Numbered from the stretch's first letter, positions 28,564 through 47,612 are shown. The stretch: DNA of 64,000 nt from an uncultured virus (IMG/VR IMGVR_UViG_3300031847_000001) (IMGVR_UViG_3300031847_000001); one strand, 5' to 3'. Made by a program: numbers and translations. Notes: generated by a model from the letters alone, not told the origin.

Positions 28564-28903
28564 GTTTCCGCCGAATAGTCCCGCATCAATCAGTCTCAAC
28601 GCCGCCACGGCTGCCGCCGCAGGCAGCGCCATCGCCTTCAACGACTCGCGGCAAGTTAATTGGCTTGTTGAGGGCTCCGGCACGATTAGCAGCGGGACCG
28701 TGGTCATCGAATCGGCCCACGCGTCGGATTATTCCGGAACTTGGAATGAACTCGACAGCGTGGACGCCTCGACGCTCTCCGGCGGAAAACTCTACGGAAA
28801 TACCTTTCCCCATGTGCCTGGTGGGTTTGTTCGAGCGCGGATCTCGGTTCAAATCGCGGGTGGGGGCGATGTCACGGTTCGTCTCAATGGACTTCTTGGA
28901 TAG
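28550..28903 (+). CDS. Beta-sandwich virion protein (putative)
   Basis: GTVVIESA..YSGTW..FVRARIS; similar pattern to 27743..28243. Confidence 0.6.
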   Translation: MTSYKFPPNSPASISLNAATAAAAGSAIAFNDSRQVNWLVEGSGTISSGTVVIESAHASDYSGTWNELDSVDASTLSGGKLYGNTFPHVPGGFVRARISVQIAGGGDVTVRLNGLLG

Positions 28904-45615: not shown

Positions 45616-45645
45616 AAAAAAGCCGCCAAGACAGTCTTGGCGGCT
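45616..45645 (-). terminator. Intrinsic terminator closing the RAMP/array/ParB operon (convergent with late genes)
   Basis: AGCCGCCAAGAC-A-GTCTTGGCGGCT perfect inverted repeat with an A-run on +. Confidence 0.75.
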
Positions 45646-45684
45646 CGAAGGTATTAGGAGGGTCTTCTATGCGGAGGTATTCCG

Positions 45685-46352
45685 TTAGGCGGCCTTCTTC
45701 AGTGCAGCGCCGTGCTGTCGCAGATGTTCGAGTAGCCGAGTAAGCGATTGAATCAGCCCGTCATTTTTCCAGTCGATCAATTCGGCCTCGAACAATTCCG
45801 ATAACTGATTTGCATAATAAGTGGCGTTCATTCCGCTCAGTTTTTGTTGGCTTCAACCTGCCTTGGCGTCAGTGTCTCACCGGCCTTCCACGCAATTGTA
45901 CGCTTGAGGGGTAAGGATTGCCCCTGTTCGTCCTGTGCGAACACTGTCTTTTTCTGAACGTGCAGGGATTCGATCGGGACTTTGAGAATCTGGCTTACCC
46001 GTTCGAGCGTGAAGCCGAGTTCTTCGGCTCGCTGCGTGATCCGCGCTCTCTCGAACGGGCTGAAAGGGCGTCCGTGGCTCGCGTTTGCCTCGACAGCCAG
46101 GGCGTACAACTCTTGCTCGTTCTTGCAATTCACCCATTCAACATCAATTACCTCTAGGCCCAGCCGCTCATGCGCGCCGTCACGGTGGAAGCCGTCAATA
46201 ATCTTCTTCGTCTTTCGATCCACCTTGATCGGCGGTAGTTGAGCGCCCGTTTTCATCGCCAGAACCATTCCGGTGATATGGGTACTGTCCACATGGGTTC
46301 GTGGATAGAGGTTCATGTCGCGTACCAGGGTATCTCGCTTAACTGTATTCAT
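45685..46352 (-). pseudogene. ParB-N/Srx-like protein interrupted by a 1-nt frameshift at about 45841-45845
   Basis: LYPR..LPPIKVD..IIDGFHR; frame stops at 45837, but the -1 frame continues LSGMNATYYANQL...KKAA to a stop at 45685. Confidence 0.65.
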
Positions 46353-46372
46353 CTTGCTCCTTTGGTGAGAGA

Positions 46373-46936
46373 AAAACTTTGCTGTGCGCTGCGCCGCTTT
46401 GCCATGCATCGCTCTACGACGCGCCGCGAAGTTTGAAGTCTCAACGACTCCCCGATTGAACCTGTAGGGTTCGCACGGGCAATCGTGGATCGCTCTTTGG
46501 TTTGCTTTGCGCCGCGCTGCCTGACTTTGCGGCACGATGCTTGGCCCCGCCTTACCAGGCATAGCATCAAGTTGAAAAGAACTTTTCAGCTCACGGAACG
46601 ACTCGGAAAGTCGAACCGTCAGCCGAAGCTGACTTCGCTATGCGGTACCGTGCCGATGCAACGCATTACGGTGCCTTGCCTTGCCGGGCTCGGCGCAGCA
46701 CCACTACGAACGGAGCCTCAACGACTCCCGGATCAGGCCGTCAGCCTTCACCGGCAATTGCCGAGATTGCTCATTGGTTTGCCTTGCCTTGCCTGGCCCC
46801 GCGAATCGAAGCGATGCTGGGAATAGAGCCTTTCGGCTCACGGAACGGCTCTGAGAACCGAACCGTCAACCGAAGTTGATCTACGCAACGCCGGGCAAAA
46901 CACTGCCGCGCGCCACGGCGCAATATCTTGCTTCGT
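46373..46936 (-). ncRNA. Array of five 5-nt-periodic (GY-NNN) tracts separated by two alternating structured linkers; candidate guide-RNA array
   Basis: Tracts at 46373-46427, 46501-46565, 46629-46704, 46778-46817 and 46882-46936; two copies each of linker A and linker B, with compensatory changes and cUUCGg/GAAA loops on the - strand. Confidence 0.8.
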
Positions 46937-46942
46937 TGCATT

Positions 46943-47524
46943 TCAAAGAACTCGAAACTTCCCAAACCATCCGTTTTTCGCCGGACGGTACGAACCAATA
47001 CCGATGCGCTTCCCGGCGTCATTTAGAACCGCCGTCAGCGTGTCCCGCACATCATCATCGGGCATGTTCTTGAACAACTCATCATCAAGGATGAGTGAGA
47101 AATTAAGCCGCCAGCCTGTCGGGTACTTCGGGCGGTGAACGATGATTGCGCCTTTGGTGTTTTTGTTGACGGCGCGCCTTGTGTCGATCGCGTAGTCCGT
47201 CACGGGTGAGCCGTCGCGCTCGATGGACAAAAACTCCATTGGGGCGATTTCCATCCCCTGCAAGAGTCTGGCGAGGGAATAGCGTTTCTTCGGCACCTTG
47301 AAGTCGCTGGCAGCCGCGATCACTGTTCCCCTGACTGCTAGGGAAGGAATGCCACAAGAGCCATCCGCAAGCCGGTAGCAAGCCAGTTCTGCGACTTCCT
47401 CTCTTGTCGGCTCTTTTTTGCCGCCCTTTACTGGCGCGCCGCCCTGTCCGGCAGATATGAACATTGAGATTGGGTTGTGGGTCATGAGGTCACTGACCCC
47501 TTCAATCGTGAAATCCAGTTTCAT
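46943..47524 (-). CDS. Solo Cas7/RAMP-like protein
   Basis: N-terminal strand F.IEG.S.L..HN, GIPSLAVRGTVI helix, HRP...GW.L.F.L, C-terminal Gly-rich loop AGKRIGIGSYRP..NGWFGKF; SD AAGGAG. Confidence 0.75.
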   Translation of the reverse strand: MKLDFTIEGVSDLMTHNPISMFISAGQGGAPVKGGKKEPTREEVAELACYRLADGSCGIPSLAVRGTVIAAASDFKVPKKRYSLARLLQGMEIAPMEFLSIERDGSPVTDYAIDTRRAVNKNTKGAIIVHRPKYPTGWRLNFSLILDDELFKNMPDDDVRDTLTAVLNDAGKRIGIGSYRPAKNGWFGKFRVL

Positions 47525-47583: not shown

Positions 47584-47612
47584 GTTATAGCACCGACGAC
47601 TTCGTGCGTCAA
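47584..47612 (-). promoter_or_regulatory. sigma70 promoter for the RAMP operon
   Basis: TTGACG-17 bp-TATAAC. Confidence 0.75.

Follow-up and report, generated by a model that had tools for sequence, protein, structure and literature searches.

Alternating structured elements between pentameric repeat tracts in an uncultured phage are likely 3' tails of VIPR guide RNAs

Introduction

The window considered here, a stretch of 64,000 nucleotides of DNA from an uncultured virus (IMGVR_UViG_3300031847_000001), includes an intergenic gap of 590 nt (46942-46353, minus strand) that lies between an ORF of 193 residues (47524-46943) and the start of a gene encoding a ParB-like protein at position 46352. 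Within this gap, two classes of structured linker, A and B, alternate with tracts of short repeats. In a preliminary description made from the sequence alone, these linkers were assigned the order A, B, A, B and compensatory base changes between their copies, and were proposed to release or cap individual guides. The question thus raised is what these elements are and to which system they belong.

One system to be considered is VIPR (Viral Interference Programmable Repeat), a CRISPR-like RNA-guided DNA silencer described in 2026 (10.64898/2026.04.26.720920, 10.64898/2026.04.26.720927, 10.64898/2026.10.15.759431). According to the text of the preprints, the Vipr protein is a minimal RAMP whose genes are found chiefly in phages and prophages, and its guides, termed vrRNAs, are about 100 nt long, comprising 9-16 YNNGG units and then an invariable structured 3' tail, with a pseudoknot in the SUSP1 clade (10.64898/2026.04.26.720920). 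The repeats are described as being coated by Vipr protomers, with the pseudoknot capping the 3' end (10.64898/2026.04.26.720920, 10.64898/2026.04.26.720927), and the variable dinucleotides as reading DNA with a one-base skip (10.64898/2026.04.26.720920). Weak dimerisation through the tails is reported for SUSP1 complexes (10.64898/2026.04.26.720920, 10.64898/2026.04.26.720927). The first of these preprints describes staggered arrays, hammerhead-interspersed arrays (types I and V; legend of fig. S19) and single vrRNAs, and gives YNNNG, NNNGG and NNNNG as alternative repeats in its methods (10.64898/2026.04.26.720920).

Results

The gap follows a gene encoding a Vipr homologue

Like the sources of most Vipr proteins, the window corresponds to phage or prophage DNA, as it encodes an integrase, an endolysin, an SLT-domain internal virion protein and structural proteins. 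A profile generated from 30 homologues of the 193-residue protein matched the solved "SUSP1 Vipr protein" (PDB 36pp_D; E 7.3e-21, residues 3-180). The AF2 model of the protein presented a pLDDT of 90.9, and the best folds retrieved by Foldseek were Cas7/Csm3 chains of types VII and III (E 5e-7 and weaker, TM about 0.5). The protein is thus assigned to the minimal RAMPs homologous to SUSP1 Vipr, a group defined by an RRM core, a thumb and a G-rich loop; a G-rich loop is present at its C-terminus. It also matches phrog_4652, a family of unknown function. Identity to the window's Vipr reached 44% at best among the related loci that were fetched (see below). When the window's Vipr served as query in a tblastn search of 50,697 phage records, no match was obtained; the same search with the Vipr of a relative identified 136 records.

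No cas gene families were found among the scanned neighbours, nor was a Cas6-like nuclease present, in agreement with the earlier remark that Cas6 is missing. PADLOC assigned no family to Vipr, to the ParB-like protein or to two neighbours, and a scan for tRNA and tmRNA returned none. Upstream of vipr, a sigma-70-like promoter candidate can be read from the sequence (Table 1), having been missed by the consensus scan because the last base of its -10 hexamer is C. As that scan detected no promoter-like site on the minus strand inside the array, a single transcript that is subsequently processed would be the simplest reading. The operon would end at a strong intrinsic terminator-like hairpin found after the ParB-like gene. 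Inside vipr, at 47032-47100 on the minus strand, weak matches to archaeal C/D-box sRNAs were obtained, the highest being that of sR5, with 22.6 bits (E 0.008) where the gathering score is 40; these are driven by UGAUGA/CUGA boxes in coding sequence and were taken as chance.

Table 1. Positions in the window of the genes, repeat tracts, structured elements and candidate signals of the locus
Feature	Position	Strand	Composition	Basis or remark
Promoter candidate, sigma-70-like	47584..47612	-	TTGACG-17 nt-TATAAC	Upstream of vipr; putative, read from sequence
vipr	46943..47524	-	193 aa, Cas7-like RAMP with C-terminal G-rich loop	Profile match, AF2 model
t0	46885..46924	-	8 units; candidate vrRNA guide before A1	8/8 NNNGY
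Linker A1	46826..46879	-	H1 46879-46866 (UUCG loop), H2 46865-46841 (bulged), H3 46839-46826 (GAAA loop)	
t1	46781..46820	-	8 units; ends AAGGC AAGGC like relatives	7/8 NNNGY; matches (GGCAA)n tracts of related loci
Linker B1	46713..46780	-	Conserved 5' AAACCAA-GAGC, Hb1 46769-46755, central hairpin 46754-46728, Hb3 46727-46713 with invariant loop	
t2	46633..46707	-	10 units, one extra base, 5 units	10/14 NNNGY in a single frame; last 5 units read by eye
Linker A2	46579..46632	-	H1 46632-46619, H2 46618-46594, H3 46592-46579	
t3	46504..46563	-	12 units, 6 more than t1 at the 5' end	12/12 NNNGY
Linker B2	46436..46503	-	Hb1 46492-46480, central hairpin 46479-46451, Hb3 46450-46436	
t4	46376..46430	-	11 units, without A or B element	11/11 NNNGY
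ParB-like accessory gene (vap candidate)	45685..46352	-		Start by homologue alignment; PHROGs ParB-like E 3.4e-12
Terminator-like hairpin, intrinsic	45620..45646	-	12 bp and T run	Operon end, after ParB-like gene; terminator and repeat scans

The tracts are periodic in five nucleotides

Read along the minus strand, the gap comprises, in order, t0, A1, t1, B1, t2, A2, t3, B2 and t4. Its predicted fold (-257.4 kcal/mol, z -5.2) was equalled by none of 100 shuffled sequences. The five tracts consist of 53 five-nucleotide units, 48 of which carry a fixed G-pyrimidine at positions 4-5 (NNNGY). Because of this periodicity and the fixed G-pyrimidine, the tracts are read as VIPR guide RNAs. Indeed, at least four tandem pentamer units with a fixed motif are found here beside vipr and on the gene strand, as in VIPR loci. 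The canonical GGY pattern (YNNGG) is not what the tracts display, with only 14 of the 53 units being NNGGY. Still, since the preprint lists alternative YNNNG, NNNGG and NNNNG repeats, the missing GGY does not exclude membership in VIPR, and the relaxed xGY units fit the published YNNNG variant. Period-5 GC tracts are confined to this gap within the 64-kb window and were seen zero or one time per shuffle (20 shuffles).

Two of the tracts show further traits. A conserved AAGGC AAGGC block lies in the middle of t2, a tract that may comprise two abutting guides, as in the published "staggered" arrays. For its part, t4 leads through a U-rich stretch and a Shine-Dalgarno site to the vap start, a layout also seen in two relatives (L051 and L014). 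Targets of the guides were sought in the window and in all loci (~0.6 Mb), assuming either an NNx rule or a contiguous NNN rule; in both cases, the best matches equalled those of shuffled controls.

Both linkers are structured on the minus strand and changed without loss of pairing

A repeat search recovered A1, B1, A2 and B2 on the minus strand, confirming the alternation seen earlier, when A1 had been placed at 46818-46881 and B1 at 46705-46777. The two A copies share 81% identity over 59 nt and lie 247 nt apart, while the two B copies have in common a 5' part of 23 nt (87%), 277 nt apart. Element A comprises a UCARC-UUCG-GYUGA hairpin, a bulged CGG/CCG stem around a 6-bp stem, and a GAGCY-GAAA-RGYUC hairpin. 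When this three-hairpin model was considered on a MAFFT alignment, its 19 pairs were formed in 38 of 38 cells, with three two-sided changes, three one-sided changes and none that broke a pair. As a control, the 3' partner was slid by 1-3 columns; now, only 24-50% of the cells paired and no two-sided changes remained. For B, a coordinate script revealed 19 listed pairs to be canonical in both copies, corresponding to 18 non-conflicting pairs given that one C is common to two listed stems, with four two-sided changes, four one-sided changes and none broken. All of the two-sided changes in B map to the central hairpin, the inner stem of which is AGGCU/GGCCU in B1 and GAACC/GGUUC in B2. Taken together, A and B offer seven two-sided compensatory changes and no broken pair, based on two copies per class, both from one genome, such that all stems proposed previously pair in both copies.

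The invariant sense-strand sequence ascribed to B in the preliminary description was likewise recovered. This 13-mer, GGGAGTCGTTGAG, is found in both B copies and nowhere else in the 64-kb window, with both occurrences being on the minus strand. By comparison, 0.04 occurrences are expected, and two were reached in none of 100 shuffles. The earlier assignment of the cUUCGg and GNRA loops to the minus strand also held. G-U pairs and the UUCG and GAAA loops are present on this strand only, and fold z-scores were better here (-4.2, -3.7, -2.2 and -2.3) than on the plus strand (-1.7, -2.8, -0.6 and -0.75) for all four elements.

The three-hairpin folds lie 4-10 kcal/mol above the minimum-energy folds, which extend the central stem by long-range pairing. 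In these folds, the UUCG region of A can pair with its GAAA region, and the variable 5' strand of B with its invariant 3' strand. The two models agree only in the central hairpins. In the case of A, the three-hairpin fold is preferred over the extended-stem alternative because two of the two-sided changes in this element need the small hairpins.

A and B are similarly laid out, each presenting a short hairpin at either end and, between them, a longer one with a symmetric internal loop. A covariance model prepared from B1 alone finds B2 (47.1 bits, E 5e-13) and gives weak scores for A1 (25.1 bits) and A2 (20.1 bits). Its only other hit, at 28597-28666 in a coding-dense region, reached 20.0 bits and was taken as chance. 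Neither copy of B was recovered at E<=10 when the A model was run on the 64-kb window. Given the score of the coding site and the failure of the A model to find B, common descent of A and B is only a possibility. As for further copies of A in the window, that model found only A1, A2, their antisense sequences and a 10.6-bit hit.

A two-guide cassette was duplicated in tandem

The segments A1-t1-B1-t2 and A2-t3-B2-t4 align end to end over 282 columns with a single 30-nt indel, equivalent to six units, that immediately follows A, where t3 has its 5' end. Within the tracts so aligned, both copies have the same fixed G in 9 of 9 and 10 of 11 units and the same pyrimidine in 6 of 9 and 8 of 11, while each of the three other phases is identical in only 3-5 of the 9-11 units. 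The A-B-A-B order is accordingly explained by a tandem duplication whose unit was a two-guide cassette of about 250-277 nt (A-tract-B-tract). The two-guide unit suggested earlier thus stands as the unit of duplication; the notion of a functional pair of guides found no support. Across the cassettes, sequence is retained at the tract-to-B junction and least so at the A-to-tract junction, as befits a tail placed 3' of its tract. The guides, then, appear to have diverged at their reading positions and through gain or loss of units after duplication, with the tails having kept their stems. With its six-unit indel, retained fixed G and freely changing variable positions, the duplicated cassette illustrates in concrete terms how growth and re-programming of such arrays may proceed.

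Related loci contain similar tracts with other tails

Using the ParB-like protein, 27 viral and 80 metagenome loci were fetched, giving 108 loci when L001 is included. In a blastn search of these loci with the 590-nt gap, only the GGCAAGGCAAGGC part of the tracts was matched, many times per locus, and no A or B element was detected. The same search against the 50,697 phage records yielded no match. Tracts resembling (GGCAA)3 were present in 59 of the 108 loci, in each case on the gene strand and never on the opposite strand. The tracts of relatives are long NNGGC runs that end in AAGGC AAGGC AAGG, precede a short tail and flank genes; in those relatives with a Vipr that is 36-44% identical, the tails are short and weakly structured. 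The order vipr, vrRNA, ParB-like gene recurs in MAG contigs L113-L115. Across the ParB-associated loci (L003, L051, L032, L014 and 55 others), guides end in a constant AAGGC AAGGC AAGG before the tail. In these loci, a tail-less guide often lies directly before the start codon of vipr or of the ParB-like gene, so that guide and ribosome-binding site are almost contiguous.

The preliminary description had proposed that A and B be sought with Rfam and with covariance models of homologous loci. Neither search extended the two classes. Rfam returned nothing over A or B, whether the whole window was scanned at gathering scores or 46200-47100 at E<=10, the C/D-box matches inside vipr being all that the latter scan gave. 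When covariance models of A and B were run against 98 related loci (512 kb; 117 loci minus 14 presumed duplicates, L001 and four chance-match loci), no element was found, the best E-value being 0.023, and the two loci from cultured phages (L118 and L119) likewise gave nothing. In IMG/VR, a motif spanning A had no matches; a motif from the 3' part of A had four, which look like chance, with no tracts or hairpins seen around them.

The ParB-like gene is interrupted by a frame break

The ParB-like ORF (46352-45837) encodes 171 residues, with the remaining ~50 residues (KLSGMN...KKAA) being found in a different frame at 45843-45685. The break follows a run of five A residues (45845-45841), and the C-terminal residues missing from the first frame match homologues of 221-222 residues, for which PF02195 is the precomputed assignment. 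A Pfam scan of the window's own protein assigned no family at E<=0.01. Close relatives of the protein (P0002-P0007) are 62-75% identical. The broken frame could be a real frameshift, as in a decaying locus, or a homopolymer assembly error; in the only sequencing run found to contain the stretch, a soil-metagenome DNA run that is probably its source, the sequence across the break is identical, at a depth of ~15. None of the runs listed for the stretch was an RNA run, and a second run, with a 0.04 share, yielded no matching sequence. A longer N-terminus, in the form of a 241-residue ORF spanning B2, was rejected because homologues start at the ATG at 46352. In 62 of the 108 loci, themselves fetched via the ParB-like protein, a Vipr homologue is encoded a few kb or less from the ParB-like gene. 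Searched by term, neither the text of the VIPR preprints nor the supplement of the discovery preprint (PMC13142463) contains the word ParB.

Discussion

We consider it likely that this region represents an array of guide RNAs belonging to a phage VIPR system, with A and B as the 3' tails of its vrRNAs. The homology of the protein, the periodicity of the tracts, the changes that preserve pairing and the duplication are all observed in the locus itself. As to a conserved structured 3' tail, four of the five tracts are followed by A or B with pairing kept, so placed that these elements may form the 3' end of the mature RNA.

According to this assignment, one minus-strand operon would encode Vipr, five vrRNAs and a ParB-like accessory protein. 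A single vrRNA would comprise a tract of 8-15 five-base units in which the G-pyrimidine is fixed and the intervening bases vary; t0-t3 each lead into A or B. These elements would probably cap the 3' end of a helical Vipr filament containing one protomer per unit, and would probably fix the register of the filament and protect the RNA end. The variable bases would read the target DNA of a competing mobile element. It is from the published SUSP1 work that we infer filament assembly, capping, DNA targeting and the placement of the tail 3' of its tract.

Comparison with the SUSP1 type II vrRNA tail reveals both shared and distinct traits. In each case, the element directly follows a pentamer tract, on the gene strand and beside a homologous Vipr gene, and is conserved while guide positions vary, with compensatory changes keeping the pairing. 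The SUSP1 tail, however, is about 40 nt long and comprises a hairpin and a pseudoknot, whereas the A and B cores span 54-68 nt, contain up to three hairpins and have no evident pseudoknot, none being seen on inspection as opposed to a formal search. Moreover, SUSP1 type II repeats are GGY, in contrast to the xGY of the window. On the VIPR locus of a Felixounavirus (SUSP1 clade), the A and B models scored at most 9.3 bits, and a tail with a pseudoknot of the SUSP1 type was not recognised in A or B.

A parallel in architecture is offered by Pseudomonas phage vB_Pae_LESphi2 (OQ594955.1), where two to three consecutive GC-rich hairpins with UUCG or other 4-nt loops follow each NNGGC tract. As with A and B, the sequences of these tails differ within one array while the stems are kept. 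They nonetheless share neither sequence nor model similarity with A or B, and the array lies upstream of vipr. In this cultured P. aeruginosa LES prophage, the Vipr homologue is annotated as hypothetical, and three NNGGC guides are found upstream of it (L119 1028-1500). Alternation of tails, in turn, is seen in the Felixounavirus Escherichia phage vB_EcoM_AYO145A (NC_028825.1), where two tail variants can be read as alpha, beta, genes, alpha, beta; a 159-nt repeat (80%) supports this reading. Given the multi-hairpin tails of LESphi2 and the alternating tails of AYO145A, A and B would be a lineage-specific version of a known part. What is unusual here is the combination of long tails of the three-hairpin type in two alternating classes, xGY units and a ParB-like partner.

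Likeness to CRISPR is also apparent, in that a constant structured element flanks each variable guide, as do CRISPR repeats or crRNA handles, and the partner is a RAMP. Unlike in CRISPR, the guides are periodic five-nucleotide units, no cas genes or Cas6 were found, two classes of element alternate and the whole is part of a phage operon. Instead of repeats of 24-48 nt separated by unrelated spacers with cas genes nearby, the stretches between the elements are periodic and mutually related. Type III toxin-antitoxin repeats, CsrA/Hfq/TRAP-like sponge sites, G-quadruplexes and parS-like iterons were also entertained, and were dropped after the Vipr match and the periodic tracts had been found.

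Several other roles for A and B were weighed. With no Cas6-like nuclease and no internal minus-strand promoter, some processing of the array is needed, and in the text of the VIPR preprints no account was found of how type II arrays are cut into single vrRNAs. Structured modules placed between guides, as in the hammerhead-interspersed arrays reported for VIPR types I and V (10.64898/2026.04.26.720920), would solve the problem of release without Cas6. One or both elements could thus be modules that cut the array into single guides, whether as self-cleaving ribozymes or as substrates of host RNases, and the stable UUCG and GNRA loops and the invariant 13-mer do suggest a folded, functional RNA. 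Yet, in contrast to the modules of hammerhead arrays, neither A nor B matches a hammerhead core or a ribozyme model. The 590 nt lack CUGANGA, GAAA appears only as the loop of H3, Rfam places no family over either element, be it at gathering scores or at E<=10, and each element folds into a row of hairpins or a single long hairpin rather than a three-way junction. Cutting by a host RNase, moreover, is also compatible with A and B being tails. We hence regard a role in cutting as unlikely. Of the release-or-cap idea put forward earlier, it is the cap or handle that agrees with published VIPR tails; for release by self-cleavage, the searches for a hammerhead core and a ribozyme match offered no support.

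The functional RNA might otherwise run from A through a tract to B, with A serving as a 5' handle and B as a 3' tail, and with t0, t2 and t4 being degenerate filler or tail-less guides. Indeed, t1 and t3, the tracts between A and B, have a common 13-nt core and end in a conserved AAACC junction, and either assignment leaves one orphan tract. However, the G-pyrimidine frame is kept equally well in t0, t2 and t4 as in t1 and t3 (Table 1), the A-to-tract junction, which holds the 30-nt indel, is the least conserved, published vrRNAs are described as having a 3' tail only (10.64898/2026.04.26.720920), and relatives present a tail-less tract directly before a start codon, as is the case for t4. Such an arrangement is accordingly improbable.

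The hairpins could, alternatively, act in cis as attenuators or terminators that set the level of the ParB-like mRNA, rather than being parts of guides. The array does lie between vipr and vap in one presumed transcript, UUUUC follows H3 of A2, and a weak terminator-like site is found in t0 (46919-46905). Still, none of the four elements was detected as a terminator by the scan, relatives have short, poorly structured tails at the same place, and the conserved tract-to-B junction would be left unexplained, making attenuation very unlikely. Least credible of all is that A and B act at the DNA level, be it as binding sites of the ParB-like protein or as inserted palindromic elements. The ParB-like gene is adjacent and the stems are palindromic in DNA as well, but G-U pairs become A-C mismatches on the other strand, and folding is clearly better on the minus strand. 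In addition, all tracts in the 59 loci are strand-specific, and no other copies of A or B exist in the 64-kb window.

More far-reaching versions can be imagined, although we doubt them about as much as the A-tract-B arrangement. Filaments with A and B tails might dock by these tails, making neighbouring guides an obligate pair that acts on two nearby DNA sites, or else guides might be freed in the absence of Cas6 by one of the elements, acting as a new kind of self-cleaving or RNase-guiding module. Docking would be in keeping with the weak dimerisation reported for SUSP1 complexes and with the complementarity of the invariant GUUGA loop in B to the UCARC strand in H1 of A.

If A and B are indeed vrRNA tails, the locus adds a well-delimited natural example, as opposed to a new class of element, to a system only months old in the literature. 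Its relaxed xGY frame leaves three variable bases per unit, and its tails kept their stems through seven two-sided changes.

Some further traits of the AYO145A locus (L118) were noted. Two vrRNAs lie on each side of vipr-vap (1054-1500 and 2525-2920), and each is preceded by a conserved leader resembling AAGAGGGUUUUUUAA. The pseudoknot stems of the beta tails covary, being GGUAG/CUACC in one copy and GGCAG/CUGCC in the other.
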